The translations under genes were made by a program, and so were the position numbers. Below the pieces are notes generated by a model that saw only the letters and a program-made list of their open reading frames with translations, did not search any database and had not been told where the DNA came from. This document shows, piece by piece, positions 1-24,000 of a stretch of DNA of 33,716 bases. The stretch spans positions 1 through 33,716 of the forward strand of contig JBDRMG010000053.1 of the NCBI GenBank assembly GCA_043812495.1. The letters run 5' to 3'. How positions within the stretch are numbered: position 1 is the stretch's first letter; the number at the start of each line of letters is the position of its first letter. This DNA is from Candidatus Omnitrophota bacterium. GTDB taxonomy: Bacteria; Omnitrophota; Gorgyraeia; Zapsychrales; JBDRMG01.

Positions 1-3000
1 TCGCTTGCTCACCATGAATCTCTGTGGAGATTCATGTTCCGTCCCGGATATCCAGATTCCCCGGATAACCTAGTCCCCGATTCCCGGATAACCAGATCAC
101 CGATTCTACATATACTATTACTCACCCTTCTCGCCGCGGCCATTGTTTTAGCATTGACAAATCCAAAAGCTCTAGAGCAAGGATTATTCTTCGGCGCTGG
201 CTTTTTGGGCGCCATAATCGAACCACGGCAGTTCTCTTTAGAACCATCGACCTCAATTTCTATAGATCCGCGCGCCTACCCTGATTCATCTACCGTCGGA
301 CAAGAATGGGAGATCATCAGGAAAATTGTTCCCCAATGGAAGAAAATACAAAAAGAAGTCGATCTGTTGTGGCGCGATCCGCGCACAGATATCAAGCTTG
401 CCTATTCGTATGTTGCAAAATACGTGTCCAATCAAAAACAAATCACGCTGTTAATTGACTACAACAACCGAGGCTATAAAGCAGCCAGAGATGTTCTTAT
501 GGTTATGATGACGCCCTTGGTCATATGTTGCGTTCTATCCATCAGGAGTCGTTATCCAGATTATGATTTGAACAGAGAGGATTTGATTCATGTCGGGCTG
601 TACGGTTCCTATCAAACATCAGACGCAGGGCTTGTTTATGCGTTAGGAAAATTAAAGGATTTTGATCCAAAATCAAGCACTCTGCAAACATTCCTTGCCA
701 AAATGATAAGATGGGCCATTATCCAGGAAGTCTATAAGAAGATTTTGCCAGTATTGGGCCGAGAGATTTCTATTCACGGGTCTTTATCTTCAAAGACAGG
801 AAGGGAAGATGATTCAGATATAAAGACTTTAGAAGATAAGCTTTGTTGTTTACCTCAAACGCAAACGCCTACGGAGTCGGATGTTAGTCAACCAGCAGAG
901 ACGACGACCGCTTTGCTTCATGCTTCCCGAAGACCAACTCGAGAAAAAACAATCGATAGTTTGCGGCAAAATATTCTTAAAAAGAATCCTGCTTTACAAG
1001 AAGCCATGAGCTCTATGGATAGAGAAGAAATAGAAAGGTTAATCCATGCCTTACGGATCAAGGAGGCTATCAAACAGAACCTTAGGGATTGTTTATTTAA
1101 CGACGAATTCAGGACAACGCGATTTGGGAAGGAAAAAAGAGCAGGAGTCAGCGCCTCTATCCATAGAGCTGCGGAGCGCCTCAATGATAAATTAAACCAA
1201 CTTTTTGCCAATATCTCTCGCGTACGGATTACGGGCGCGGTCGATATCCTCAGAGAAAAAATCCTTGGTCAATATCCTTCTTTGGAAAAAGCCATGGGGA
1301 CTATGGGCCAAAGTGAAATAAGAAGGTTAATACAGACCCTATCGATCGGGGAAGAATATAAAAAACTTCTCGCCGCTTGTCTGTTCCATCAGACACTTAG
1401 CGTCGCTGATCATGAAAGACTCACAAAACCAGCAATATGGCAGATGGTACAGGGAGCTGCGCGGTCTCTTAATGAAATATTAGCGCATCTTGAGTCAGCA
1501 AAAGATCAAAAATTATCGACCGCGAAAGTCGCCAGCTATACAACATTTCCGATGACTACGGGAATGATCATCCTCGCTGCTGTTGTGATCGGATTGGCCC
1601 TGGGCGTTCTTCTTGTGCCGGGAGTGCGGAAGTGGCTCGCCCGCCTCATTAACGCGCCGGATGATCAAGAGATAACAGAAACCAGAGCACAGAAACCAAA
1701 GAGGCTGCTGGCGCAAAGCTCATACTCATCCGTGGCTGGGGACTTGAGCTTTAATACTGCGCCAGCGGCCTATGAATTTAAAGACGAATTCCAAGGATCC
1801 CGGACCTCTCTTTGGCGCGAAGTCTTCAGCATCGGTTTGACTACTTTGTTGATATTGACACCGTTTATCGGAAATTGGAGTCAAGCCTATGCAAAACAAC
1901 CATGGTCTTCGGGGGTGGATCTTAATATCGCGCCTTTCAAAGACGGTATTTATATCGGTTTAACCATTCCCTTAGATAAAAATACGCAACAAATCGAGCG
2001 TCCCGCGCCTAAAGTCCACTTGGGATGGCAGGATGTGGCCTTAACTGTCGCAACCGCTGGCTTATTCTTGATGCTGCGCAATGAGGTGAAAGCAAAAGAT
2101 CAATTCAAACATATTTTCACCAAGCATACTTATTACGAAGATGGCACCATAAAGATGACTACAACCTTAGAGCATTCTCCAGGGCCAAATGATTTGCCAG
2201 CCTATCTTTATGCAGATGTTCTGAATGCCATAGCCTTGAGCACTTTCGGCACTGTTCGTTCACATGGGTTTAATATGCCCCACCTGATCCGCAATACGGA
2301 AACCGCCGCATTTTTAGGCACATCCAAATTTGGATTAAAATATGCCACGATCGAATATCGTGACATTGACGGTTTTTCCTGGTTAATGACCGTTGGCTAT
2401 GATGCGGCCAATTCCGGGATTAAAAATCTGCTGCGTTATGGGGAAGATCCGTTTTATGTGCTCGAAACGGACTTGTTGGTTCCTTTCGTATTTCGATATT
2501 ACCCCCAGGGTAATCGTCAGAACAGTTCGTGGGATTGGAAAGTATTACCGGGGACAGTTGCAGAACTCACTGAGAACATCATTCAGGGATATCGTTTTGA
2601 CTTCAAGAGCTCTCTCAAGGTCGCTGCCCCAGTTTTTGTCAACGACGATCCTCAAGGCATGCTGAGCCATCTAAATCATAATGTGATTACATTAAGTAGT
2701 GAAGATAATGTGATACTTTGGCATGAAAAGATTCATGCCTTCAATTTTCATGATGAGATAGGAGTCACTCTCGTTGGTGATGAGGAAATTTCATCGTTAC
2801 TTAACAAAGCACCTTATTTGGGAGACTTCGGAACTTACCGGTTTTTAATAGATCACATCAGCTGGCAGCACGCTTTCAACTATTATGTTTGGTGCTATTT
2901 TAATGACTGGGCTAATAAAATTCACGGCTGGAATGAACATGACCAACTGCTTGAAGAAAGAGAACCGATGTCTTGGACGAATGATATTCGATTTAATATG

Positions 3001-6000
3001 GAATTAGAACGCTTTTCAAGAGAATTTCCATTTCACCAACAGCAGAGTATTCCGCAGCAGGATCCGTACGTTAGTCCCGAGGCCAGGATTATCAGTTCAT
3101 GGGTGGCGCTCAATCTGATGCCCAATGTCCTGCAGTCTTTTGTGGTCTCAAGCGATCCGCAAAGACGCTTTCCTGCCGATACATCGGCCGTTAAAAGCGA
3201 CACAACAATCTCTGTATCATCTGAGGAGCTACATAGCCTCATTTTGCCTGTTGGCATAATTGGCATTCTGATTCTTGCCGGCCTTGTCATAGTGGCAGTG
3301 CACCGCAACTGGTTCGGACTGAAGGATGTGTTTGATAGGGTTAAAGAAAAGATTGCTGGTGTAGTCCCCCATCGTTTTGCCGTAGGCAAAACGGACATGG
3401 GGGATCCCGCTGATCGTTTTGCCGAAGGCAAAATGAGCGGGATCCAAACAGACAAGAGGCCGTTGGTACAGGGAAGTAGCCTTCAGTCATTCCCTCGACA
3501 AGCTCGGGACGTTGCAGCTATCAGCCATCAGCAATCACATCAGCAATCAGCTGAAAGCCGAAAGCTGATAGCTGATAGCTCAAATGCGCTAACGGCCCGT
3601 TCTTTATTGGTTCGACTCGCTTCGTCCTTCGGCAAGCTCAGGATTCAGCTCGCTCACCACTGGTTGAAGAGTCGAGCCACCCTGCCCGTCCCGCCGCTTC
3701 GCAGCGAAAACCGCGGGCCGGAGAGCGAGTTCCGCCGAAGGCGGGGGGATCCAGTAATGACAACACAATTTAAGGAGATTTACTTAATAGTTTCGAGGTG
3801 GGTTAAGCGATGGCCGTGGTCTTTGAGAGATACTTTTATTTCTGAGACATCAGTTTTCAGGACGGCGACATCAGACTTAAGGATCGCGACATCAGATTTC
3901 AAAACAGCAATATCTGCCTTCATTATTCGAATATCGGCCTGGATTATAAATATTTGTTCCTTCTGCTTGCCCAATTCTTCAAATACGATATCAAGCTTTT
4001 TCTTGACAACCGATAAATCATCGATAATCGTCTTGATATCCGAATGGATGTTCTCAAGCACGACCGCGAATTCCCTGTCCTTGGAGAATTCTTTGAAAGC
4101 CTTTGTTGTCTTGCTGCCTTTGCTTTTCATAGCGAGAGTTATTGTAGGCCGGCGAAAAGTTATTGTCAAGGCAATTTCTTCCAGTACTCATGGAGCAAAA
4201 GAGAATATTGCGCCAACGGCCTCTTTCTTTAAACCTTGCGGCATCAACTGGCATGCGGTTTTAGTAGCCGTCCTTGTGACAGTGTTGACATTCTTGCCCC
4301 TGCCAAGCCAAAGGATCAGAGCCTTTGCCGAGGCTTTTGCCCAATCTTCATTGAGTTACAGCTGGAAAATAATGGATATGTACCCGGACCTTTACCGTTC
4401 TCTCAGCGCTCAGGAAAGGGCCATTTTCGACTATTTGATCGCTCGATTTGATATCCAGCCGTATCAAAAAATTCGCGTCGAATTCTTTGCCAAATACGCG
4501 CAATATATAAATGCCCGCCTAAAATACGATTCCAATTTCAGGAGTGAAGATTTTCTCGAAGAGTATTTTTGGTGGAAAGTGCAAACCGATCCGGCGTATA
4601 CGGGTGTCCGGGGCGACATAAGCGAATTTTTCAAAGGGTCCAGCGGTCAGCAGAGCGCGTGGTCCCAACGTCATATTTATGACAATCCCGACCACGTGAC
4701 CGCAAGCAACTGGATTGTCAACGATCAAATTCATCCCAATACGCACCGCGTCAAAGATAACGCGGATGCGCAAAATCACACCGCTTCTCTGAAAACTCAA
4801 TGGCATGCCGTTATGTTCTTCAGCCGTACTGTGCTCGAAGGCGGGTCCCTCCAAGAACGGGACTTGGCGGCGTTGCAGCAAATCGTTAATGCCATGCTCG
4901 CGCTCCAAAATAGCGACGGCAGTTGGTTCGGCACTTACCGTTGGGATTTTAATATTTCTCCGACGGATGAAAAACCCACTGATGACATTTCCGGCATGGC
5001 CACAAGCCTCATTGTCTATTACATCATCACAGGCGATGACAGCGTTTTGGACGCGGCCATTGCGGCCAATGATTGGATCTTAGGGCAGCAAGACTTAAAT
5101 GACGGCAATGAAACGTTTAACGCCTTTGGCTGGGGCGAAATACAAACAGACCAGGGAAGCGAAAAGATCAAAATCTTCCCGACGGTCTCGACCGCCATGG
5201 CCATAAATTCCCTCTTTGCGGTCTCAAGGTTTTCCGGTGAAAACCACGACGGCGCGGATTCCCTCAAATACATGACGCCGATTCCCTATGCCGCTGTTAA
5301 GTTAGTCTCATTTACAGGTTTTTGGGACGCAAGACCTCTGCCGGACGGCCAGCATTTTATTCTCGGCATGGCCGATACGACCGGTACGCTCATGACCGGC
5401 ACCGATGGTTTAATCGGATCGCAGACCGATCCCATTCTTGTTCTGGATTATTTCTTTGGATCCGGATGGCTCCCGTATAATCCTCAATCGCGCAACGGTC
5501 TTCCCTGGCTTAAGGATTCTCTGGAGAATACTATTGATGTCAATGATGTGACTATCGTAGGCTATCCGCAGGACCCAAGCTCCCCGAGCGTCTGGGCCCA
5601 AGGAACAGCGCAGGTCGGTATTGCTAACGGTGTTGTGGGCAATACCGCGAATGCCGAATTTAACTACGCCCAGGTGCGTCTCCTCAAAGACCCCGTGACA
5701 GGCGGCATTTATTACAGCCGGGGCAGTCCTGAACAAGGCTGGCCGTGGAATTATCCTTATGCCGATGTTACGGGCACGATTCTTTGGATGCTTAACGGCA
5801 GCGGGGTCACGGTCCTCAATATTCTTAATGTGGATGTCATGACCCCGGCGGACGAAGGCGAAGAACCCCAAGCTATTCCGCAAGGCGTTCTGCTTGTCCG
5901 CGACCCGGCCCAGCATATCAATTATCCCAACCCGTTCAATGACGAAACCGTTATCCGTTATGAACTTTACCGCAGGAGTGATATGACGGTTCGCGTTTAC

Positions 6001-9000
6001 AATATGCTGGGGCAGCTTGTCGAAGAATTCGAGGAAGGCTTGCGCGAACGCGGCGTGCACGAAATCCGCTGGGACGCCGATCCCGCGGCGAACGGCGTGT
6101 ATCTTATTCAAATCGAAGCCAGAGACGACAAACTCAAAGTGATCGATACCGAAACCGGCAAAGCCGTGAAGCTCCACGCCGCCCTGTGGCCGTTGGGGAT
6201 GATGCCGTTGAGCGGGTTGGGCTGGACGATGCTGGGGCTTGGGGTGTTGGCGGTGGTTGCGGCGGGAATCGGGATTGCCTATTGCTTGTTCAATATTTCA
6301 AGAAAGGCGCGAGGGGTGACTATCTCAATACCTTCCAGCGGAGACAACGCGAGAATATCCTTATCGCCGGTCACAAGATATGACTTAGAGGCCAGCGCGC
6401 AGGAAAGAACCATATTGTCTTTGATATCTCGACATATCTTCACTTGGATACGAGGATTATTAAAACGAGCTTTTTCTTTAATCAAGGCAATGAGAAGCTC
6501 GCCGTCCGCGCTAGGAATGGCAAAAGATAGTTCCGGTTTTCTTACGGCAAAGACGAGTTCATTCAGGAGTTCATCAGATGTAACGAGCAAAAATCTTCCT
6601 TCAACGAAAGCGTTGATAATCGCCCGCGCTGATCCTTTCAATAGTCCGCTGATGAACACATTCGTGTCAATGACGGCTTCGAGCATAATATTCGTCTCTA
6701 GCCTGATGGACGATTTTGGTGATTTGCTTCTGAGAAAGGGGATTCTTCTTAAGGCGGGCGTCAATACGAGAGAGCAATTGCTTAAATCGCGCCTTCCAGG
6801 TGTCGCGCTCAAGCTCTTGAATCAGCTTGACTCTGTCTTTGGTGGGAAGTTCCAAAATAGCTTCCTTAAGCTGCTTGGAATTCAATTTGATTTTGATCAT
6901 GACTCAAGTATAGCGTTTTCAAATAAAAATGTCAACACCCCAACCCGGCAGGTATTGCAACCTGTCTTTGTTTACGCCGGCCTCGGGCCTGTTGGGATGA
7001 TGCCGGCTACTGCAATCGACTGGATCATATTGGGGATGAAGGTGTCGCTCGTAGTGGCTGCGATGCTTTTCGTTTATCAGGCCATCCTCTATGTGAGGCA
7101 TATCAAAAACGGCGGGACTTTCTTCCCAACATTTGTTTCTCCAAAGATGAAATACATTTCTCTCAAAAACCTTATAGGATTTTTTGTATCCCTTCCAAAG
7201 AATATTGTACCGCCTAGCTGGATTTTACCTCGCCATCCTATAGATGCCCCTGTATTGGGTGATCCGGGCATAGAAAAGCTGAAGCTAACAGAGATATATC
7301 AAAGAGACATTCTTGGGATGCGTGTGTTTTCTAGAGACATTGGGCCGAACCCAACTGCCTTTATTCGTAATGATTGGGCTGTTATAAGAGGCTATGGATG
7401 TGTTAGCAGGGATGGTTGGTGGGTAACAGAGTTACGTGATGGGGACACAATAAATCTTATTCGCTGGGGTTATTATCTTGCAAAGTTAAAGAAAGAATAT
7501 GGCGTAAAGAACGCGGCGATCATTAGTCACAATGCTCATAAAGGCGGCTTAGCAATTCCTGCCGGAATGAAAGTTGTGATAGTCTCTGGATATGTGTCAA
7601 TCTTTAATTCTTTTTGGATAGGATATGTCTATGGTCTATTTCAATTGATCGATAATAGTCGATCTGCAGAAAATCGCATCATTCATCCATCTCCATTTAC
7701 AGGTTGGGATAAGCTGTTATGGGCCATTCGCATTAGGATTATGTCCATGCAGAAATCCTTAAAGCGATCCACCAGACAAATGGAATCTGCTGAATCTAGA
7801 GTAAACATCTTTATCCCAATACCATTGATTGCAGCGGATGGAGCAATGCTGGGGATTGCGGCGTTGGTGTCGGTTGCGGCGGGAATCGGGATTGCCTATT
7901 GCTTGTTCAATATTTCAAGAAAGGCGTGCGGCGTGAATATTTCCACGCCTTTAAACGGGGACAGTGAAAGAAGTCCTTGCCTTCTCGATCTCTTGAGAAA
8001 TCTTTTTATTGGAAATCTTAAGTCTTTTACGGCGTTGATCGATGCTCGTCAGGATCGCGTCGAGGCGCTTAGCCCACGTTTCCTTTTGAAGCTTACGAAA
8101 CAGCTCAATTTTAAATCTTATGGGCATGCGATCAATGATCTTCTCAATTTCCTTCTCGTTAATATCCAAAGACATCTTAATCATAATTCAAATCCTCCTT
8201 GTTTTGATTTCAGTATAGCGTTTGCGGGTAAAGATGTCAATGTCCGGCATTATCAAATCGCCAAGTTGCCGGTCTATAGCTTCGCCGCCGTCGATCCGAT
8301 GGGGATGATGGGGATTGATTTGTCGGTTGAGGTTGTCGTCTTAGGCCTCGTTGGCGTCTTGTTGGTGGTTTTGGCAAGGATGATGGTAAAGGCGATAATG
8401 ACAAATGGCAAATATCAAATGTCCAATAAATTCCCAATGCCCAATGTTAAATGGGTTTTGATTCATTGGAAATTTGTCATTGGTCATTTATTTGATATTG
8501 GGAATTTTTCATTTGGCATTAAGAACGAAACCTTGTCTCTTCCAGCAACATCCTATTGCCTCTTCGACCCCACGGGCTTGAGCCTGATTCCGATGGTTCT
8601 TCCGCTCTTAGGCGCGATCATGAATCGGGCAGATGTTGAAAGCAAAAAAGAAGAAATCATTGCTCGATTTGTCGAATGGTGTAAAGAGAGCCATATTGTG
8701 CCAGATGCAAGTAATGTTGAGAATTACTTAAGTGCTTTTACGGGCGGGTTGGACGATATTGTCTTGGAGCTTGCGTTAGAAATCTGCGGACAAGATGAAG
8801 AATCAGCATTAGCCCTTGCTGAGCAGTTAAAAAGCGACCTTATTAAGGGAGCAACCGCAGCCATAGAGAGCGAAGAGTCCGCCGAAGACAAAGAAAAACA
8901 AGAGGCGCTGGAAAAGGAACAACAAGAAAAGTTTACTCTGACAAAAGAGTTTAAAGTCGCATTTAGCGATCTTGGCTCCAGCAATACGGATAAAGCGCAT

Positions 9001-12000
9001 CACGGAGAAGCAGTCATAAATCGATATATTCAAACACAAGGCAAGAGCGTCATTTTAAAATTAGTCGAAATACTCCAGGAATTAAAAAGTAAAAAAGATG
9101 GTCATGTTAAAAGAACATTTCATTCCGGAAGAGGACAAGACCTCAATAAGACAGCCGTGAGAAATCAGGTCAGAAGAATCAAACAACTGGTTTTGGACAC
9201 ATGCATCGCGTGGCTTGGCGAGGGCAATGAGGCCCAGGTGGCCATGGCCGAGCGCTTCATCCGTCAACTGGGAGGAAAAGAAAATTTAAAACATGCGCTT
9301 GGGGAGCTTGGAAGAAGAGAAAGAAAAGGGCGATTAAGCGAGAAAGAAGCGGCCCAAAAAGAAAATATCAATCGCATTCTCGCGGCTCTCGCCGTTATGC
9401 TCTTGGTCCTTATTCCGGCGGCGCTTATTTTCGGTCAATCCGCTTTCTACGCTCAAAACATGCTGCCTTTGGCCGCGATGGTCCTGGCCGGAGTTCTACA
9501 AAATTGCCAGGAAAAAGAAGACCCCGGTTTGTTAGATATCGTTACCACCAGGCAGTTGCTGCTTCGACAATTAGAGAAAGCGCTCGAAAATCCCGAGGGT
9601 ACAATAGCCACATTCATCCAGATTACAAGTGAACTCATGAGACTGGGCCTGAAAGAAAAATTAATTGTCTTAAGCGCGGCTGTTCAAAAGGAAGTTGGAA
9701 GACTTAAGGACGTTGTTGAACAAATCAAAGCCGGCAAAGACGCGGCTGACTTGGCTTCCACGCTCCAAAGCATAAGCCAAAATCTGGATACGGCCGGCCT
9801 CGATGACATCATTCAAGCGGTTGATAAGATACCGCGGATTGAAAGAAACTTATGGCATGACGTGAAAAATGCTCTAGGGTTCATCACGGGCGGTCTCGGC
9901 CTTCTCCTGGCCCTGGAGGGCCAGAAGCAAATCGACAAAGCGCAGGAATTTCTGGATTTGATTGTGAAGGGAATCCATGACGCCGCGGACATCATCGGGG
10001 GCGATGCCCTTTATGAAGGAGAAACAGAGGATGACACGACCATCGGACTGTCCGCCGTGTTCGGCCTGCCTTTAAGCTGTGAGATAGCGCTTTTAGCCGG
10101 ATTGGCGGTTGGCCTTGCGCTGGCCGTGCGGTGGTTAAGAAATATTGTTTTCAGCCGCACAAACCTCCCTTATCGAGGTCATAACTTTGTTGTTTTGGGC
10201 TATGCGTTCGGGGTGCTGCTGGTCGCGGCCGGGCTTTTTATGGCCTTGGTCGCGTCAGTTGAGTTGATACGAGCCGGCCAGATCGTTTTGGGTATCGTGG
10301 GAATTTTGTCAGGCTCTATCAATATCGCCATGGCCTCGGCGCTCGCAAGACTTTTTGGCATGTATCATTATGAAAACAAAAAAGAAGCCGCTGTTTCCCG
10401 CCAAAAGAAAATATTCAACCGAATCCTGCCTTTGACTGCCGGCATCACCATCTTGATCGGTCTTATGAATATCAGCTCTCTGACGACCGTTGGAATTATT
10501 TTCGGAATTCTGACCGTGATCGCGGGCAGTGCGGTCATGATTCTTCAGCCGCACCGGTTTGACCGGGCAGAGAAGGCCATGGCGCAGAAAACAGCTAATC
10601 AAACCCTCAGACATCTCGAGAATGGAGATCTCCATAAATGGGACCTTTGGGTCAAAATTCTCGAAAAGCTTCTTCGCTATGGCGGTCCTTTGGCCTGCGG
10701 ATGGAAAGTTTTCAGGAAAGACGGCACCATGAAAAAAGGCGTTCAGAAAGAAGCTCTGAAATTCCTCAAAAAAGCAGATATTATCCGCATCACCGAGGCA
10801 CCGGAAGAGTTCAGCCACATACCGCAAAATATTTTCCAGAAATTGCAACAAAAAGGCTGGCTCATTGTTTGTACGGATTCTCCTTATCTTTTGAACAAGA
10901 ACGGAAAACAATTCCTCTTTGCTTTAACGCTTCATGAAAAAACAGGCTACCTGAATGAAGGGAAATATATCACCCTCGGCTTACTTGATCAAATGCGGGC
11001 GTTAGGCGGGCTTGAGGAACTTAATGATCTCATCGCTTTCGAGAATAAAAACCAGGAACAAAAGAAGGAAGATGCTGGCGAGTCCGAAGTATTAGCCCGG
11101 AAAATACTCGATGTTCTCAGAATCCGGCAAAAACAGAAAATGACGGTTTTGATCCTTTGCGATTACAATTTGGAGCGCTCCGTTATGGCCAGAGCTCTTA
11201 TCGATGCGAGCGCGGACGAAGGTCTGCTGGATAGAATCGACATCATTACGGCCGGGATTTCTTTATACGAAAACTATCTCGACAGAGGCGCCGAGAGGGA
11301 GCTTCTCAGAAGATTGATCCAGGACCAACCAATCCTCTTTGGCCATATCCCTGTGGCCGCGCAAAGCCGTCAAATCAGACAAGCCGGTCTAATCTTGGTC
11401 ATGACGGAAGAACAAAGAGCCTTTCTGATATCAAAATATCCCGAGATTGAAAAGAAAATATTCCTGCTTCTTGGGGATAAGGATTTACATGCCACTCAAG
11501 ATGACCGCAAGATTATTAATGGCAAGACCTACCAGCCTTTAAGGCGAACTATCGAAAATCATTTGGACAGTATTCTTGACCGCATCGAATCAGCCGCGGC
11601 GGATTACGCGGGGGTTATCCGCAAAGAAGACGATTCGCTTAATAAAACCACTGAAGCAGAAAATGGTCCAATGGCCGGGTCCGGGCAGGGGCAAAAAATG
11701 CCATTGCCAACAAGCTCTCAAGAATTCCAATCACCCGCCGGAAGACTTTTGGATGCGTTCAAACTCCATGAAGCTAAAATTATTGAACAATCCGAGAATA
11801 ATATCGTGGAGGGCTTAACCATTTACACAATTGAAACCCCTGAGAGAATCGACAGGACCGAGGCGCCGCAAGGATTGGAGATTTTGGATAATGAATTGGC
11901 TGCGGTCAGACGCTTCGATCTTCTGTATAACGATAACAGTGAGCTTATTGCGATCTTCCCTGTGCTTGAAAGGAAAGCAGAAGGTGCCCGATACATTGAT

Positions 12001-15000
12001 TTTTGTGATTATTATGTTTCGTATGTCTTATTAAGAAGAGAAGGCAAAAAAGAAGACATCATCAGAGGCTGGCAGGAATTTGCAGCCCAAAGAAACAAAA
12101 ATAGAGATCTAGTTGATCAGTACCAAAAGGCCAAATCAATCGGTAAGACAATCGAGAGGGTCTGGGGAGAAAAAGAAAAACAAACTCCTTTTATATACAT
12201 TGAGTTGCCTGAAGAAAGCATTGTTCCATCTATGTATTCTTTTGATCCCAACATTTTCTTGGGGATTGATAAAGAAAGCAAGATCAAAAAGAAGATTGAC
12301 CGCATGTTAACGCAGAATCCTGATACGGAGAGCGTCATCCTGATCGCTCCTCCAACGGTCTTCTCGCCCGCTTTCCATAAAAATCGATCTGCGGACGATG
12401 ATTTTGTTATTCACATTATGCAAGAAGTCAAGAAATTTAAGTTTGCCAAAGATGACAATATTCTCGATTCGGCCACGGGCACGGGTTATCTTCTCTGGGT
12501 GGCGTGGGTTATGGCTGGAAAAAGAAAAGACTTGAACTATTATGCCCTGGATATCAATCCTTTGGCCGCAGCCAGTGCCCTTATTAATTTGCAAGACATT
12601 GCTGGAATTCCTGTGCAAGTCAAAGCACATAACAATGTCATTTCCAAAGAAGGCACGCCTGCATTTACAGAGAAACACAAAGACAAGATTAAGCCGGTTG
12701 TCTTCCAATTCATTATTTCCAACAGCCCTTCGTATGAAAAGAAAGAATTGGATGAACCGCAAGACAATGCCATGCACATAAGGCTTGAGCAATATCATGA
12801 CGGCGGTCAGGCGGGACGGAACTATCTGTCGCGATTTGCCGAAGGCCTGCGCATCATTCAGGATTCAAAACGAGGATTGGCTGTTACTTGGAATGAAATC
12901 CCAGAATTAGGTCGCGATCCTGTAGGAGATATCCTCGCTCAAGCCGGATTGCATTATGAAAAAAACAAAGGCGGAATCTTCACTGACTATTGGAACCATC
13001 CGACGTGTCTCATCAGAAATCCGCGGCGAAAAGCGTTAGAAGTTATCCCCCAAGACGCTTCTGTCAAAGGCAAACCCAACGCAGAATTATCCATCTTCAT
13101 CTTTAGCCAAGAATTTATGATTCCGGCATTAATTATGCTAAGCGCTGCAGTATTTTTGTATATCAATAGCTCCTCAAAATCATCTTCAGAAGAAACAGTC
13201 AGATATTTTAGCACTGGCGAAGGCCAAGATCATAAAAACGCTTTTGAGAATATGCGCGAGGCCATAGAGCTTGCTCTATCGATAAAGGATAAAGACGACG
13301 TATTGAGCGGAATTGTCGAAATATTAACGTCCGCTGTTTATCATCGCAAAAGTAAACCTGTGGCCCAAACCATTGAATTCCTTATTGCTAATTTCCAGAT
13401 GCCCCCTCACTTAAAGTCCGAACTTTATCAGGCCTTATTATATGCATTTGAGTATTTCGATAATGAACACGCAGCTTGCGCGTTAGCCAATCTGATGACC
13501 CGTTTACCGACGCCTGGTGAACTAGATCCACTAAAGGTAAACGGTCTCCGGCTATTTAAATCGAAGGCTCATCAAGGAAATCGCCTTGCGGCCCAGACAT
13601 TAGCGGAATTAGCTCCTTATTTACTAAAACTCATGACTCATCCAATTCCTGATGATTTAAGAAAAGAGGCTGTTAACGCATTAATGAAATTGCCTCTTGG
13701 AATTAGCGGTCCAGAACTCAATTTGACTGAAGGAGATTATCCTCTTGTCAGAATAGAAGATGTATTAAGCAAGGTTGACTCCGGCCATCCTCGCCATGCC
13801 AGATTCATTTCACGGCATTTAGGCCTTTCAATGGAATTGGCTTATTCAAGGCAGCTAGTTTATGATCTAGACGATGATAATCTTTTAGTCTTCAAGATAT
13901 CCGACAAAAATGGGAGTCCTTTAAGTTTATTGCGGGAGGTGTTTTGGATGAAACATCTGAAAACACTTAAGCAAAATGGAGAATTCGAAGACGTAAGATT
14001 TGAGATACCTGAGCCTTTAGAGTTTTCAGATTCTCATGTTATTAAACTGCAAGATATTCCCATCGATGTTCCTCGCGGGCTAAAGCTTCATCCCAAACAG
14101 TACGCGATCTGCTTTGTGGTTCATAAAGACTATTTTAGATATCCCAATGAAACAGATCCTGAACTAAGACTTAATGAGGAGCAGGCCCTAGAGGTTTATC
14201 CTAGAAATGCTTTTCTCTTAGGCCGCCTTGCCTCTTTAGGTATCCTCACCACGGATGTTATTGCTTTATTTCACAGCAGGATGCAGGCCTATAAGACAGA
14301 TCGCGATGGTGGCATATACCATGTCTGGAAAAGAGGACGACAAGATCGCTGGCTATATTCTTGCGATTGTCCAAATTTTGGCGTAAGCGGCGGAAGAGAC
14401 TTTGAACACTACATATCGTGGCCGACAGATCAGCCGCCAGCAGGTTACATGAAAGGTCAATTAGGATTATGCCATCTTATGGAAATACACTTTTTAAGTC
14501 TGCTTGACGCAAGCGGTAGTTACTTTAGAAATAAGGATAGAACCAGAGTAGGTGTAGGTGAAAATTCCAGGCCCGTTGATGCTCGAGACTTATTCGATGG
14601 GGAGTTATTTAGGAAAATGGTTGAGAAGATCTTTCTGAATTATTATCGGGGTTTTACAAGAGAAGCTTGCGCAAATGAACTCCCCGTGAATTTTGATTTT
14701 CTTATCAAGCGAATGATTGATGAAATGGGCGTGGATAAATATATGACCGAAGTGTTAAGAAAAGATATCCAAAATCGGATGTCTGATGAAGAATTTAGAG
14801 AAGCACTTGTCCGTGGAGGTTTCTCTAAGGAGGAGGCATCTGCAAAAAGAAAAGGGGAGAGTCCTGTCGCGATTATGACCGGTCCGCACCTAGGTGAGTT
14901 TAATCAAGCAACTTCTCTTCCTGAGATGTTCGATGCCATAGAGGCTATGGTGGTCTTGTGCGTACAGGGTTTGTATAGAAAAGAAAACGATCCAAGTCAA

Positions 15001-18000
15001 CCTCATTCCGATTTTGTCGATAACTTACCCGTTGGATATTTCGTCTCTGGGAAACCGCAAGCCAATCCGAACCTCATAATCGAAAGAGAAGAAACACTTT
15101 ATAAGCGTTGGATTCAAGGAACCGCGTTAGAACAATTTGTAAGAAGTATAACAATTAAGCAGAATAGCGAATCAATTCTCGAAGGGACCTTGGTAACAGA
15201 TTCCTACGAGATTCCTTTTGAGATTCAGGTCCAAGACGGAATCCTCACCGGGCCGGCCGCGGCGATTGAAGATAACGAGGATCGCCGCGCATACTCCAAG
15301 GAACTTGTTCGCGTCATTCTCAAGTGGCTTAAAGACGAAGGATTCGTCCAAGGCCGGTTTTTTGTCAGCAATAAACATGCTGTTTCTTTTCTTGAGCAGA
15401 CATTGATGTTTTGGGCTGGCTCAGAAGAACAATCTTTTCGAACGGATACAAAGGGCGCGATTTATACGGTCATAACCTATGACCTTACAAAATTGGATCT
15501 TGATGCGCAATTAAGCGTCCGGGATACGTTACCAAACAGGAACGCATCAAGCGATTCAAATGATATAGGCGCGCTCTTCTGGGATGCAGCGTCTTTCTTA
15601 ATTTTTGTCTTGGCCATGATGATATTTATCGCATTGATTTCCAGGGTCATAAAAATCGCTTATCGCCGCTTTGTTATCCTTAGGGGCATTCAAAAAAGCT
15701 TCCCCGTTCTTTATCCCAAAGACATGATCGGTGCCGTTGAATCCGTCCAAAGAGTCAAAGACCCTTCTGTTTCCCGGCTTGACAAAGTCGGACACGCCCT
15801 TGCCCTGTACCAAATGTCCTATCGCCAGTTTAAAGTCGTGAGAGACGCCCTTTCCGGGCATATCCATCTCTTTGGTCTCATGACGCTTTCCGCGTACAGT
15901 CATTTCGGACATAACCAAAAGATCTTTGGAAAACTTATGCACGATGAGATTTTCCATCTAGTCGGAGGAGTTTATAATTTATTACCCTATAAGTTGACGA
16001 CTTTGGTTAAAGGCCCAAGCGGCATGTATCTCAATGAGAATTTCTACGGCATGCCTTACCTCTTCGACCCTTACTGCCGAAATAGGACCAGCGCTTTTGC
16101 CCGCAGAGAAAACGAACGCTTCAGGATCGATTTTAGAGCCGTTGCCGATATTGCGGCCGATCAAGGTTTCACGCTCACCTTTGAGATTGTTCGATACAAT
16201 GGGCACCAAGAAGATGCAAATGGTTCACCCATTCAGATCACAAGCGATGGCCGCTATGTGATCGTCTATTATCGCGTGTCCTCACCCTTAGAAGAAGCGA
16301 CTTATCGTGTCGCCTATCGCACGAAGGTCAATGAGCTTCAGGAAAGGCTCGATGGGACGCAAGAAGCAGACGAAAGACTTGCTCTCTACTTTCGGCTGGC
16401 CAGGCTCTATTTCGATCTAAAAAATTATAGTAAAGTCGTGGACTTGGTCGATAGGACAATCGCAGGACTGACGCGCGTGGATGCGTTTAGGCATGGGCCC
16501 TTAAAACGTAAAATGGTCGTCTACTATTCCTGTTTAAGAGAACTTTTCCAAGCTAAAGACTTTGACGAAGCAAAGACGTTGGATCATCTATCCGAGATCA
16601 GAGAATCATTTGCCTTTGAACTTGTTGCTTTTGAGACATCACCGCTGAAACCAGAAATCGAAAAAGCAATCAACACAATCGACCGGCTTACGGTCCTTGT
16701 CGAGAGTGGAGGAACAAAAACCATGGAACGACCCGCCGATCTTAGAGGTATGCTCAATAACGTTATCGCTGTCAGTAATCAGATATTTCATCAATCTCCA
16801 AGTCGGCAGGACCATAAACAAAGAATCAGTGAACTTTGCGCCTATATCAATACGATTGAACCAGGGACAGACGAATTTGAGCTTCTCAAGCATGTGCTTT
16901 GGAAGATGACAAATCTAGGCTTTATTGTGACGGACGATTTATTTGCGATGCAAAGAATCCTTAAGACAGTCCTTTTAAACAAACGACTGATGGCGTATCT
17001 CTATTCCCATTTGCGGGAGCTTGAGAAAAACGTAACCACAAGTGCGCAATTCCGGTCCTCTCTCAGGGCAGCCACAAAAGAAGCCGGGGCCCATCAGAGA
17101 CGCGCCGATGCTATTGAAGATTACTCCATTAGCGGTTTAGGCCGGGAAGCCGTGGAGAAAGAGATTAAAGACCTGAAGGGCGGCAAAGACTTGGAGGGCG
17201 CCATAGATTTTCTGATTAAAGACGGTCTTATTCTTGAGCCGGACCGTTATGCGCTACTCACCGAAGGTGTCGAAAGAAGCGATGTCAGGTTTGCCGCGAT
17301 TTACAGGGCTGTCGAGATTGCCGCAAAGAATCTCAACGTCAGCATAGACGTGGTGATAAAACTCTTGCGTATGCGCGGAGTGTATTTTGTCATGGCGCCC
17401 GACGGCTGGGGCATCGGCGAATCGATCGCGCTTTATCGCAATCAGCCCGTGATCATCATGGATAATAATCGCAACGAAAGGAACATTGCTCACGAAATCG
17501 AATCCGTGCTCACGGGTTTTGACCATCAAGCCATTCTTCTTATCGACCGGGGGCAAGTGAATAAAACGCTTCGGGAATTGATCGATCAAAGAATGGAGGA
17601 CGCGCTTTTAAGAGGCATTTTCCCTGAGATCCAGGATTACAACTCAAAAGGCAGCGAAGGCCTCATCGAGGCCGGGCCGGTGGATATCGATGCGCTGGTC
17701 AATCAAATCTTGTCCGTTTTACGCAAAAAACGAATAACACATGAAGGCACGAAAGAAGAGAAATTAATTTCTGAAATTATACGCTTTACCAAGAAAATTG
17801 AGCCCTGGTTTATTCGCTTCATTCGCGAAAAGATTCACCCAGGCAACCTGAGAATTTGCCGCAAGACCGCGTTTGCTTTGGCGCGCATCTTGTCAGATCA
17901 GTTTGGCCTGCCCATATTTGGTTATGATTCAATCAGACTGGAAGTTGTAAGTGGAATATTAACCAATCCAATCAATGGTCATTATTTTGTTTCACTCATT

Positions 18001-21000
18001 GTCGATAACAAAAAAGCTCTGTTTCTTGACGGATCCCGTTGGTTTGACGATGATTTCATTTTAATCCATGAGTACGATGATGCCATAAAGCAGCTTGATA
18101 TTTTTGAATGCTCTGAGGCCAATGTTAGTCAAACTGCTTCCGGCCACACGTTATTATTGGCTATGTTAGCCGCAGGATATCGAGAGAGAAAGAAATTGAT
18201 GGCAGGACAGCTTGAATTGGATAAAGAAACAAGCGATTTCGTTGATCGTATCCGACAAGAGTTTTCCAAACAGAAGTCCCGCCTTGGAATCATAGCATCG
18301 CCATTATCCATTCTCGGCCTTCTCGGCCTCTTCGCAGCGGCTTTGATCATCATCCCTCACGCCCTGGCCGCCGGCTTCTTGGGCCAGGTGTCGATGTTAG
18401 CGTTGGTACCGGTGTTGGGAAAGATAGGAGAAAACCTTGAATCCAATAGAAAGATGGAGAGGCTAGTTATAGGATTGATAGAAGCATTAAAATTTATCCG
18501 TTTAGATGAGAATGATATTGAAATTATGATTGCATTTTCTGGGGAAATTCACGCTGAGGATGCTGTCAACAAATTCTTAAAAGACCAGGATTTCAGAGAA
18601 GAAGTTCTTTCATCCATGGTTATCGCTTTACCGAATAATTTGCAAAAGTTGTGGGATACGAGTGAATCCCTTTCTTTAGAGAAACACCAACTTATGTTTG
18701 TCATTAATCGGGTTGCCCAGCGCTTGGGACAAACAACGATTAATATCGTAAGTCAAGAAGATAATATTCAACATCAGTTGAAAATTCCTCTTGATGTAGG
18801 CGTTGTAAGAAGATCTATTCGGTATTTTGCATTGACTTCTAGTTTGGATACAGCATTAAAAGATCTGCTACGTAGAACTTTTACGCAATCCACCGGTTTC
18901 GAATTTAGATTACGCAACCTTGCCTTGGATGAACGCGCAAAGGAATTTTTGACTGCATTTCTGCAAACCAGAGACGGTTCTCAAGCAAAAACCGGAGAGG
19001 CCTTTAGTTATTTGCTGAAATTGACAAAAGCGGGTCAGACGCCTAATTTTGAAGAGATCCTGAGACAAAGAAGAGAAAGGTTGCATCAAATAATAGAAGA
19101 AATCGAGGCCTATGAGAATATGATGGCCGGAACAAAAGAAGACGGTTCTTCCATTGATTATGAACGCGACGTGATTATGGGTGGCTTGCGGCCCCCTCTT
19201 GGCAATAGGGAAGATACTCTCAAAGAAATGAATGTAATTAATGACATTCTTGGGTTAGATGAGAATTCTGTCCCTGCTCTTTTTGACGAAAGAATATTCC
19301 ACATTGGAAGAATTCTTGCTCCGCGGCATAAGCGTATCCGAAGCATTTCTGATTATTTAGAGATGTATTTTCGCATCTATCCCATCGACAAGCACCAAGA
19401 GGAGATTTCCGAAATAGCCCTAGTTGTCCTGAATAAGCTCTATATGTTTCTCTCGGAATTTACGAAACTTCTTAGGGGATTGGAACAGATTCTTGATGAC
19501 GAGAAGGTTATCTTCCGGGAAGAAATTTTATTTTTACGTATACCTAAAATTATGGTCATGAAGGAAAAAATCATTGATGCGTATAAGGATGCACAAGAGC
19601 TGTTAAGCAGGCAAGAATATGCAAAAGCCATAAGATCCGCCTCAGCAATCTTTGCAAATGTCGATAGCGAATTATCTAATAATACATATCCCACGCTTAT
19701 TAATCGTCAGTTTACCTCTATCCTGGCTAAGAGTGCCCGCGATGAGAAAGTTCAAAGAGTCTTATCAAGACTCAACGAAATCGATTTTGACAATGCTCGC
19801 TTAAACGCTTTTATGGTTGGTGTCACTACGGAGGGGGCTGCTTATTCATTGTTGAAATATCCCTATATACGTAGCTCGGATAATGTCATTGGCTTCGGAA
19901 TGGAAATTGACCCTTGGGAATCTATCAAGCAGGCTTTTTTGATTTATGAGAATATTGATATTTCTGGTATTGAGCGAGAGTGTCCCAGAGAACCTCTTAC
20001 AACTAATATTCTTGTTTTCGGCTCACGGGTAGATTTGCTTATTACCGAACTTCTCAAAAATGCCATTGTATATGCAAAATTTAATGAAAATACGCGTTCC
20101 TTGACCGGAAAGATTCGCGAAGACCATAGAGAGACAAAAGAAGGATTTCTTTATACAATTGAAGACAACAACAATGGTATCCTCCCGAGAAATTTAGAGA
20201 AAATCTTCTATGTTTGTGAATCAACTAGGGGGGATCTTTATAAGAAATTTGCAGGAGGAGGCGTTGGCCTTGCCGAAGTGAAAAACATCGTGGATATGCA
20301 CAATGGAAGCATCCAGGTTATAAGTAGAGTCCGTGGCGAAATGGCGTATGAGATTAACTATAATAACGGAAAGTTTTCAAAGGTCAAATCCGTAAATCAG
20401 AAAAACGAACAAGCACATTTAAGGTATCCAACCGGCACCAAATTCATTATAACTCTACCTTATCCTATGATTTATGTTAATCTTGTTGCTCCACCTTTTG
20501 AGGAAAGGGGGGAGAATAATGAATTACCGCTTACAAAGCTCGACTTTAGTGTCAATAAAGACAAAGAAAACTTATCGCAGAGTGGATACCTTGAATTATT
20601 TACAGGTGCCGTTGATTCTTCTCTTGCGATGGGATTGGCGGCGGCTGCGGTGCTGGCAGTAGTCACGGCCACAGGGTTGATTTTAAGAAAGAACGAAAAA
20701 GTGAATGGGGCGAGGGCGCCGGGAGTCAGTCAATTTATAAGTAATCAAATTAAGCCGCTGTGGCCAAAAGTCAGAAATGCGCTTGCTCGACCTCTTACCG
20801 TGGCTGGTGGAAGAGCAAGTTTGGCCACAGCGGCTTTTGTATTATCCGTGGTCCCGACGCTCCGACGTTCCGTCGAAGATCCGGATCCCGTCTTCCACAA
20901 TTCAATATCAGAAAATTTCTGGACTGCTCCGATACCACGAAATAATGAAAAGAATGTCGGGGGTCGGAGTCCCGACCGACAACGAAGTTGGAGCGTCGGA

Positions 21001-24000
21001 AGTGGGGCATCACGATTGCTTCCTAGCGGGATTTTTGCCTCCAATCAGCTTCAATTAAATAGGACAAAGTCGATTATATCGTTCCAGCACAGCCAAGCTC
21101 ACGCCTTCTTCCTTCCTTTACTTTCTCTTATGAACAGTGAAACCACCACAGGATGGCTTATGCCCATAGTGACTACTTTGGTCGTTATTTTCATTGTCGA
21201 GAAAATATTTAGGCTCAAAGCACGAAAGATACTTAATGCGTCGGAGTTAACCGAAGAGCAGATTCCTCAACAACTGGCGAAATGGCATTTTATTGCCGCG
21301 TTTTCTCTCGCACTTCTGGGAACTCTCAGCCTCAACTTAGAGATGCTATGGAACGCGCTCGCAAATACCCAAACCGCTGAACCGTTAAGCTTGATTATAA
21401 ATATACTCCTCATTTTCACGGCGATGTTTATTATATCTCTGTTTATGTTCAGAGGAGCTATACGCAGAGAAGTAGAAGCTTCACGAAAGGAAAAGGAACA
21501 AGAGACGGATGGTAGTAGTGAGACCCTCAAGCCGGAAGACCTCGTCGAATTCGCCGCAGAACATGGCTTCATCAAAATGCTGGCTGAAATTGACGGGAAA
21601 ACGCCGCAACAGATAGCATCTCTCTTTGTCTCTTTCAACGAAGTGAATTCGCCCGGATTCAACCTTATAAAAATGCCGCTGCGCTCAATGGTATTATTTA
21701 TCAACAACAACCCATCTCTTTGTGAAAGAGTTTCCAAAATGAAAGTCACCCGGCGGCATGGAAAGATGAACCGTGTGGAATTCCTTTTTAACCCTGCCCA
21801 AGGTCCCTATGCGCACCTTAGCATAGAGAGAAACGGAGATTCTTCCCAATGGTCCTGGTCTTATCGATTGGGACGCAAATTCACATTGTTCTGCTTTGTG
21901 GGAATACGGCGAATTATTAGCATCGTAAGGGTGGAGAGAATGTTGACAGAAGAAGATTATCTGTTGTCCGAGGGCGGCCTAAAACCAACGCCGCAAGACA
22001 GCTCCGACACGGCCGGTTCCTCAAGCCAATCATCCGAGCTGCTTTCAATCTTCCATGGGCCTCATTTTGTTTCTCTCCTAAGCGGAATTATTTTGATCAT
22101 CCTAACCGGACTACTTTTAAGATACGCAAAGCAGGTGCGGGCAGAGGATATCAAGTGTCAAGTTTCAAGTGTCACGTGTCAAGGCAATCCCTATCCCCTC
22201 AACGCTGAATTTAAAGATCCTCAAAGACAGAAGGTACAAGATACAAGAAATCCGTCAAATTCTTCGAATTTGACGAGACCTCGGCAATTTGTTGGAAACA
22301 AATTGCCGGGCAAGCTCCAAACAATACTCAAGAATCAAATTTCAATATTCAAACGTTTGGGATTTGGAAATTGGAATTTGGATATTGTTTGGAATTTGTT
22401 ACTTGGTGCTTGGAAATTCAAATCTCCTTTGTCCCCAATACCTCAATCTCCCAATTTCCTAGTCCCGGGTCGCCCCATCGCCGGATCACCCCATCAAACT
22501 CGCTCTACGCTATCCGCTATCCTTGAGCGTTTAGCGTTTAGCGTAGAGCGTAGAGTTGATAAAGACCTATACGCTAACCGCTATACGCTATCCGCTATTC
22601 CTCTTACCTCCGCGGCCCTCATCCGTCTTCGCCCCGCCTTCGGCGGGGCTACGCCGGATTTCACCCAACAGACTATGAAGACGGATGAACCCGGTGAAGC
22701 TAAACGTGAAGTCCCGCCGTCTTTTGGCGGGATGAAACAATTTAGCGAAGACGGGTCATATCCAGGCACCACGCCTGCGTGCCGTAATGTCGCACTTCGG
22801 CGTGCAGGCATGGGCTTTAACCAGTGGGGCTTCATCTCCCTCGCTGCCGCGACGGTCCTCTTCTTTATCATGCCTCATAGTACGGCGCTAACTTCTGACG
22901 CATTTCTTTTAGGTAAGATTCAGAATGTACCGGTAGACAATCTTTCTCTTTTAGGGCGGACAGGGAAAAACCTAAAGCAGCTTGATGAATTCTTCCACGG
23001 TGAGATTGGCGTTGCGGATCAAAGACCGCAAGGTACCCTTGGCGAGGATTTTGTGGTTGGGAATAGACAAAACGCTACACATACCTTCCTTTTCCATGAT
23101 GATATGAGAGCCGTAACGCGCGATAATCCATCCGTCCTTACGAAAGGCCTTGACAGCCTCTTGGCCAGAAATATCAGAAGGAATCTTGGGCATTTATATC
23201 GAAACCTCATAAAGAAGTTCTTCTTTATGCTTGGCTTTTTCTCTTTCAGCGCGCCTATTGAGCACCTCAAGACAGCCTCTCATCGCGTCCTTGATGTTTT
23301 CCTTAACTTCCTTAAGAGTTCGTCCTTGACTAACGCAGCCAGGAATGGCGGGACATTCAGCAACGTACCAACCGTCCTCGTCTTGCTTTATGATAGTCTT
23401 ATATTTCATCTTGCGCTACCTCCTTATTTTCACTTCGCACTCAAAGATAGCACGAACGCACATGTAAGTCAAGCCATAGTCGCGCCATTAGGCGCAATGA
23501 GTGAAAACACAATCATCGACAGTCATCTATTGGCCTTTGCCCTTTTGACAGGGGTCATCTTCCTTGCGCTTGTGGCGGCGCTTTTAAGATACAGTAAGCA
23601 GATTCGGGCACAGAATGGCATTGACCATCAGACATTGGTCACAAGTTCCGCCACAAACTGTGGCGAGACCTCGCCGCTTTACGGCGGGCACAGGGCACAA
23701 GTCACAAGTAGAACCCTAACCTCTAACCCCCATTTCCTAATCTCTAAAATAACAAACCCGCATTGGATTCATTGGATTAGAGGATATCCGGGGATCCGGG
23801 GATCCGGGACTAGGATATCAGGATATCAGGAGATTGGGGACGTAAATGATTTGTCCCCGATTTCCCAATCGCCGGATTCCCTAGTCCCGAGTCACCCGAT
23901 CTCCAAATCACCTCACCAAACTCGCTCTACGCTATCCGCTAAACGCTATACGCTCATAACCTCCGCGGCCCTCGTCCTCATCGCTGCCGCGGCCATTTTT

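Follow-up and report, generated by a model that had tools for sequence, protein, structure and literature searches.

Toxin–antitoxin-type cassettes with sigma70-type promoters nested antisense in a giant Omnitrophota open reading frame

How might small genes with promoters of their own be kept, facing backwards, inside the codons of a gene long enough to fill a whole contig? This question is raised by contig JBDRMG010000053.1 of a Candidatus Omnitrophota bacterium (assembly GCA_043812495.1; contig C53 of the genome called G000 here), which was analysed over its full 33,716 nucleotides and is referred to as the window. A single plus-strand open reading frame (ORF; 1..33714, 11,238 codons) spans this 33.7-kb contig and is open at both of its ends. 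Four small cassettes lie within it on the minus strand, three of toxin–antitoxin (TA) type and one coding for a coiled-coil protein, and each is headed by a sigma70-type promoter motif. Judged from the sequence comparisons described below, it is very likely that the four motifs work as sigma70 promoters, that they are under selection and that they are overprinted on codons of the giant gene.

Predicted promoters overprinted on giant-frame codons

A first-pass annotation of this DNA had assigned every cassette a near-consensus promoter with an exact 17-bp spacer, and both the positions and the spacers were confirmed on the sequence. On the minus strand, TTGACA-17-TACAAT (4141..4169) lies 10 nt before the ATG of the coiled-coil gene, and TTGACA-17-TATACT (6907..6935) lies 6 nt before the ATG of the first vapB15-like gene, where the predicted start falls on the ATG itself and the message would be leaderless. 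A second TTGACA-17-TATACT (8212..8240) and TTGACT-17-TATCTT (23444..23472), the latter with an extended -10 TG, stand 27 and 34 nt before their ATGs, and in both cases a Shine-Dalgarno sequence, AGGAGG, is found 9 nt upstream of the ATG (8194..8199 and 23419..23424, minus strand). The first three promoters each match TTGACA/TATAAT at 11/12 positions and are the top three sites in window 1-17000; the fourth matches at only 9/12. In synonymous shuffles that preserve the giant protein (n=1000), minus-strand sites with 11/12 matches occur at a mean of 0.14, and three or more are seen with P = 0.001. The looser motif TTGAC-N18-TAnnnT has exactly four minus-strand occurrences in the window, one at each of these promoters, with P = 0.009 for the count alone, a value that ignores their placement 6-34 nt ahead of genes.

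The same annotation had argued for selection from the duplicated vapB pair, in which the hexamers are conserved while the spacers have diverged. The pattern is real (0/12 differences in the hexamers, 5/17 in the spacer), yet the pair alone yields P = 0.052 and was rejected as too weak an argument; support for selection comes instead from the homologues. Promoters were scored across 60 nested cassettes on their hexamers only, with spacer length left unscored and 600 windows serving as the null. A high-scoring site was found in 54/60 cassettes, and the spacer is 17 bp in 52/54 of these compared with 5% of null windows. Spacer positions 7-19 carry no more than 0.23 bits each, and the extended -10 TG (-15/-14), also unscored, is present in 29/52 promoters. 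Hexamer conservation is partly circular in such a design, whereas spacer length, low spacer information and the TG are not.

The position of a promoter relative to the giant's codons can be expressed as a register. The register count covers 52 promoters, the 6/60 cassettes under the score threshold and the 2/54 with other spacers having been set aside, and gives 27 in register 0, 25 in register 1 and 0 in register 2. Among background promoters (n=145), a stop would occur at the -10 box in 0%, 14% and 61% of cases in registers 0, 1 and 2, respectively. The -35 box follows the register too: TTGACA is used at 24/27 register-0 and 0/25 register-1 sites, and at 76/145 background sites. The -35 hexamer of a register-1 promoter falls in line with the giant's codons, and TTGACA there would encode Cys-Gln. 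The first three promoters of the window are in register 0; the promoter at 23444..23472, which heads the hicBA cassette, is a register-1 case and therefore carries T at the sixth -35 position, its -35 box reading Ser-Gln in the giant. On a quick tree, registers 0 and 1 are interspersed, each being found in several clades; deep branches of this tree have weak support, a limit that all of our trees share. One vapB group (L259, L261 and L263) occupies the third phase, which is prone to stops; all its members have TTGACG in register 1, and the group is probably an independent capture.

As a type, these promoters are nothing out of the ordinary in the host genome; it is their embedding that stands out. 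Outside the giants of G000, 145 such sites have a 17-bp spacing and 97 a 16-bp one, and the nine other spacings tried give 40-88 each. The same kind of promoter is also found ahead of free-standing TA genes of this genome, such as RHH-ParE (C47:70808) and a nucleotidyltransferase (C47:93427).

Cassette genes and the codons they share

The promoters head genes of recognisable kinds, all nested antisense in the giant frame on the minus strand. The promoter at 4141..4169 is followed by a single gene for a 116-aa coiled-coil protein in the wobble-aligned phase (3780..4130), to which no function was assigned. Next comes a pair of coupled genes under one promoter (6900-6279): a 77-aa VapB15-like putative antitoxin in the codon-aligned phase (6667..6900; NF047401, E 7e-12, 45 bits against a cut-off of 80) and an overlapping 135-aa PIN-domain (VapC-type) putative toxin (6279..6686; PIN_3 and TIGR00305 over cut-off). 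The PIN residues D7, E43, D90 and D108, which we take to be the PIN acidic tetrad, are invariant across 15 aligned nested homologues. A second 77-aa VapB15-like gene (7951..8184; 34 bits against 80) is only 28% identical to the first, so the two are old paralogues; the toxin of this cassette is reduced to a remnant of its last ~26 codons (7896..7973), with the rest missing. The fourth cassette is again a coupled pair (23409-22972), with a short HicB antitoxin of 71 aa (23194..23409; PF15919 over cut-off, covering only profile positions 1-57 of 123) and a HicA toxin of 73 aa (22972..23193; PF07927 over cut-off). No solved-structure relatives were found, a protein-cluster atlas returned matches only to unnamed coiled-coil or hypothetical clusters, and Rfam gave 0 matches in the window.

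These pairs resemble the type II TA systems VapBC (PIN) and HicBA in being two-gene operons with the antitoxin first, genes that overlap or abut, toxin domains over curated cut-offs and invariant PIN acidic residues. They differ from typical VapBC and HicBA in that the antitoxins are short and without a recognised DNA-binding domain, no operator palindrome was found, and the operon is sited inside another gene. At the promoters, palindrome arms average 4.5 compared with 4.6 in shuffles, a test that short or non-palindromic operators would escape, and the promoters may thus be constitutive. Directly behind the four cassettes there is no stable terminator-like fold (z 0.14, 0.09, -0.10 and 1.14). 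In short, ordinary promoters are found in an unusual architecture.

The nested genes, too, avoid stops and cysteines in the giant frame. In 46 codon-aligned nested genes, the codons TTA, CTA and TCA, which would read as stops in the giant, occur 0 times against ~100 expected, and ACA and GCA, which would read as cysteine, occur 24 times against 62-72 expected, the strongest depletion of any residue. The count covers codon-aligned genes and leaves out hicB genes in another phase; the Cys-codon depletion is present in both the vapB and the hic sets, and control A-ending codons are not depleted. The window's four cassettes still place 5 Cys in 615 giant codons, and cysteine avoidance is therefore statistical. 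Among 31 TA pairs, differences at codon positions 1, 2 and 3 number 828, 485 and 1322, a pattern in which constraint rests on the TA frame while the giant peptide, beyond its avoidance of stops and cysteines, drifts. Both frames of the nested pairs are open beyond chance and under selection by these measures; close relatives suited to a proper dN/dS analysis were not found.

We infer both transcription from the promoter sites and translation of the giant through the cassettes, with the giant peptide there being a near-neutral filler required to lack stops and free cysteines. The giant frame might alternatively go untranslated through the cassettes, its openness being an artefact or by-product. 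The contigs are fragmentary, and a public DNA run covers only short pieces of window 1-20000, both of which leave some room for this idea. It is nevertheless highly improbable, given 0 stops against ~100 expected and an avoidance specific to one amino acid, both recurring in independent assemblies.

Distribution of nested cassettes and possible convergent transcription

In G000, every homologue of the window's six cassette genes is likewise nested antisense in a giant. When 892 antisense ORFs in the giants of this genome were scanned, 11 cassettes came to light, of which nine are of TA type (PIN, HicBA, DUF433 with a partner and DUF4258-DUF2283) and two are coiled-coil, and 10/12 antisense TTGAC-17-TAnnnT sites in these giants head a cassette. 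Among 343 alternative-frame ORFs on the sense strand, the same procedure turned up no gene headed by a promoter in a comparable way. In G000, 0.256 Mb falls in frames with 3000 codons or more, against 1.68 Mb of other DNA; TA-type cassettes number nine in the former and ~7 in the latter, an approximate count of which five come from family searches and two were named by eye, making them about eightfold denser in giants.

Nesting recurs in relatives. Across the order (168 genomes), nested genes account for 20/20 vapB loci, 10/14 coiled-coil loci and 10/30 hicA loci with DNA, the last count covering the 30 of 58 hicA matches that have loci. PIN loci outside G000 are nested in 8/18 cases, and vapB15-like matches in 40/52 when the order is taken together with a class sample of 401 genomes and eight further loci. 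By comparison, 3/160 general PIN loci among the matches listed, mostly unrelated free-standing PINs used as controls, are fully nested; a fourth such locus was rejected as flagged only by span. Giant sequence flanking the cassettes is unrelated between genomes, so cassettes do not owe their positions to inheritance. Giant frames of six relatives, 380 kb in all, contain 35 antisense promoter sites where shuffles predict 9.2, and 1 sense site where they predict 5.3 (shuffle range 1-10), although these regions were picked for already holding a cassette. Sense-strand promoter-like sites are thus scarce in the giants of the relatives (L287-L306), though the giants of G000 have six. In the relative G103, a stretch of 37 kb bears 16 antisense sites, and genes with Pfam matches follow at least six of them. 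One region of this genome (G103:C4:10001-50000; L300 and L301) is very densely loaded with nested cassettes; small membrane-protein genes are among them, as are genes that by eye seem RelE-like or BrnT-like.

What would antisense promoters do to a message running the length of the giant? The earlier annotation had foreseen strong convergent transcription that could cause interference or double-stranded RNA processing sites. Promoters overprinted antisense on giant codons would indeed imply convergent transcription whenever both strands are active, and interference may be a side effect of it, but interference as the promoters' purpose is unsupported. The processing idea is weak. RNase III was not found in G000 (90.5% complete) by family, tblastn or custom-profile searches, and RNase III-coupled antisense regulation was rejected on this ground, even if the completeness of the assembly means that absence is not proven. 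In the order, RNase III is over cut-off in 3/168 genomes, and any match at all is found in 4/91 high-quality genomes; one frame of 16,023 codons contains a weak RNase III-like match (G015:C2:29441-29791). The available part of PMC12641178 does not address RNase III in Omnitrophota. Rho was found in G000 and could keep antisense RNAs short.

It can still be argued that regulation of the giant message is what keeps the promoters in place, through polymerase collision or antisense pairing, or that giant transcription silences them and so triggers the toxins. The strict antisense orientation seen in the regions picked for known cassettes fits this, as does the finding of neither operator palindromes nor clear intrinsic terminators, and promoters often outlive toxin loss. 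Regulation is nonetheless an improbable purpose. The promoter-like sites head intact genes of known families and look like the native promoters of small operons, the surviving promoters still drive the antitoxin gene, and the free-standing TA genes of G000 use promoters of the same kind. Moreover, site number and position differ widely between genomes, and the failure to find RNase III in G000 counts here as well.

The host frame itself looks to be of a kind described before. It is multi-domain, with 29 hydrophobic segments in its 11,238 codons and in-frame profile matches to GH77, HATPase_c, LMWPc, GlpX-like, T9SS-tail-like and SidJ-related families. As far as the available parts of those papers go, it resembles known Omnitrophota giant genes (10.1101/2023.11.21.568195, 10.64898/2026.06.07.730766, PMC10066038) in the great length of its ORF, its abundance of membrane helices, the enzyme domains scattered along it and its poor conservation. 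The terms antisense, nested and opposite strand have 0 occurrences in the main texts of these three papers, supplements being outside the scope of that count. A full-text literature search, with subscription journals and supplements outside its scope, likewise returned nothing on nested opposite-strand TA genes in giant ORFs or on antisense overlapping genes in Omnitrophota.

Other material is carried by the giants as well. Enzymes taken up whole or in part, in frame, include a SidJ-related pseudokinase (below cut-off), HATPase_c, a 4-alpha-glucanotransferase and a GlpX-like protein (window ~13650-14980, 20030-20460, 27850-29860 and 31130-31380, respectively). At 22590-22720 the giant coding frame contains a branched, stable hairpin of the intergenic-repeat type (z -3.9), and comparable stretches of repeat-derived peptide are found near 8400-8600 and 23700-23950. 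Elsewhere in G000, contig C42 holds a giant frame of 3361 codons with two nested PIN cassettes and shares 27 nt, in frame, with the start of the window (1-27), but because this 27-mer is present three times in the genome the join is ambiguous. Contigs C63 and C20 carry giant frames of 6322, 5722, 4784 and 11,223 codons in series over a 103-nt contig overlap; successive frames overlap by ~90-160 nt at two places, which may reflect frameshifts or coupled genes. On C11, paralogous ORFs of 89 and 111 aa (~13321-13590 and near 19717; L285 and L286) have an AGGAGG but no TTGAC promoter, and are read from the sense strand of a 7525-codon giant in a different frame.

TA families have stress, dormancy or anti-phage roles in other bacteria. 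The cassettes could likewise be modules of this sort, kept for their own benefit, with the giants simply being where acquired DNA accumulates; the whole enzymes and intergenic hairpins that giants also absorb are in keeping with this. We find it quite improbable, since it leaves unexplained why vapB15-like genes are nested in 40/52 cases when free placement would avoid double coding, and why toxins decay first.

Repeats, decay and addiction as a probable explanation

Three of the window's four cassettes are bracketed by direct repeats of the giant's plus strand. Repeat D1, consisting of a transmembrane linker and the PIN 3' end, has copies at 6229..6355 and 7846-7972 that are 83% identical at a spacing of 1617. 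Linker repeat D3, which encodes the peptide AxxPxGMM, occurs at 6177..6204, 6975-7002 and 8283-8310 and thus brackets both vapB cassettes. Around hicBA, the left copies of D6 and D2 (22114-22149 and 22428-22519, together 22114..22519) pair with right copies at 23581-23616 and 23850-23941 (81-83% identity; spacings 1467 and 1422). As the D1, D6 and D2 spacings are all multiples of three, recombination would excise a cassette without breaking the giant frame. Flanking direct repeats were found at 5/32 vapB cassettes versus 3/400 control pairs, the test covering those of 40 cassettes that have 300-nt flanks and a called start (8/40 do not).

Decay can also be followed. In 39 scorable vapBC cassettes (L037, at a contig end, was left out of the toxin count) the antitoxin is stop-free in 39/39, whereas 5 have a broken or missing toxin; hicA carries stops in two further loci. 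Subject to caveats of ascertainment and gene length, the loss of toxin before antitoxin is the order expected for active addiction modules.

Our preferred reading is that the cassettes persist by addiction, which would make deletions inside the giant gene costly; from the sequence evidence, we put its probability at roughly 0.55. Small self-expressing cassettes, driven by housekeeping sigma70 promoters, would sit backwards in the linkers of the giant frame. Loss of a cassette would free its toxin, so that deletions inside the giant gene would be penalised. Cassettes already cleared of stops would move between linkers via recombination, and in-frame deletions between linker repeats, which would keep the giant frame open, would be punished by addiction. 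Rho and the lack of RNase III would make the convergent layout affordable.

A precedent for such guarding comes from Vibrio chromosomal integrons, in which self-promoted TA cassettes guard arrays and are proposed to prevent deletion, according to the available part of 10.1101/2022.08.03.502626. The likeness to these sedentary integrons, on the same partial text, is that type II TA operons with promoters of their own are scattered through a long modular array. Here, by contrast, the array is one open reading frame, the cassettes and promoters double as its codons, and the boundaries are linker repeats. An integron cassette array in the strict sense was rejected, with no integron integrase over cut-off in G000 (best IntI match 89.5 bits against a cut-off of 265; over cut-off in 2/41 genomes). 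Taken together, toxin-first decay, the bracketing repeats and the Vibrio precedent lead us to prefer addiction and stabilisation over selfish lodging, interference or stress and defence.

Several points weigh against this preference. Addiction itself does not establish host benefit. Both VapB15-like antitoxin hits of the window (45 and 34 bits) are under the family cut-off (80), and the coiled-coil gene and small membrane-protein genes occupy the same slot without a known toxin. Many giant stretches have no cassette (for example L290, L291 and L304), and guards are therefore not required. No strong repeat lies within 300 nt of 27/32 cassettes. Toxin-first decay is partly ascertainment, because the loci were found via the antitoxin; the 5/5 toxin-first cases would arise with a chance of ~0.1 from gene length alone; and at L058 the promoter and hicB start are lost as well, while at L036 the antitoxin is shortened. 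The count of free-standing TA genes behind the density comparison is approximate, and kin in the samples are not independent, so the P values overstate.

Much of the same evidence could be produced by selfish elements that have found a safe harbour. Stop-cleared cassettes would then spread in linkers that tolerate in-frame filler and often recombine, with no gain for the host and any stabilisation incidental. An extremely variable cassette load would be natural in that case (16 antisense sites per 37 kb in G103, none in several 20-kb stretches), and so would the many unrelated families and signs of repeated capture, namely three nested hicA groups in a quick tree and a separate phase-2 vapB clade. 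There are apparent escapees as well: in the free-standing vapBC copies L167 and L249 (also L252 and L264) the antisense frame is still open across the whole cassette or much of it, as though they had lately been released from a giant. L167 also lies at the start of a short frame resembling a giant N-terminus. We regard purely selfish lodging as rather unlikely. It shares the addiction step with our preferred reading, so stabilisation would follow anyway, and long retention of intact cassettes across many families of the class, together with the enrichment of flanking repeats, fits a benefit at least as well.

A useful comparison for the double coding is the olg1/olg2 pair of genes in Pseudomonas aeruginosa. 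In the available part of PMC8850804, as here, both strands are coding, with stop depletion and codon-position constraint, here from sequence alone. Those genes represent recent, taxonomically restricted overprinting; in the giants, known families arrive as whole operons and recur class-wide, and it is the host frame that adapts.

A broader picture can be drawn, which we offer as possible but tentative. Giant genes may be translated cassette arrays shuffled at linker repeats, with a dedicated lineage of stop-free, Cys-free antisense TA genes serving as anti-deletion guards and with codon register dictating promoter sequence. This would amount to integron-like diversification without an integrase, the whole array being one protein, made affordable through RNase III loss.

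For the study of these bacteria, one consequence is that gene callers discard genes inside longer ORFs, so annotations probably lack such operons; 11 cassettes are hidden in G000 alone. Another is that the avoidance of cysteines and stops is sequence evidence for translation of giants through their linkers, for which the proteomics in the available part of 10.1101/2023.11.21.568195 is thin (381 short peptides). Addiction by nested cassettes would explain, in a way open to testing, how 2-Mb genomes can keep repeat-rich genes of 30-100 kb, and the nested promoters provide a large natural set of DNA that would serve at once as promoter and as codons, with a simple rule linking the two.

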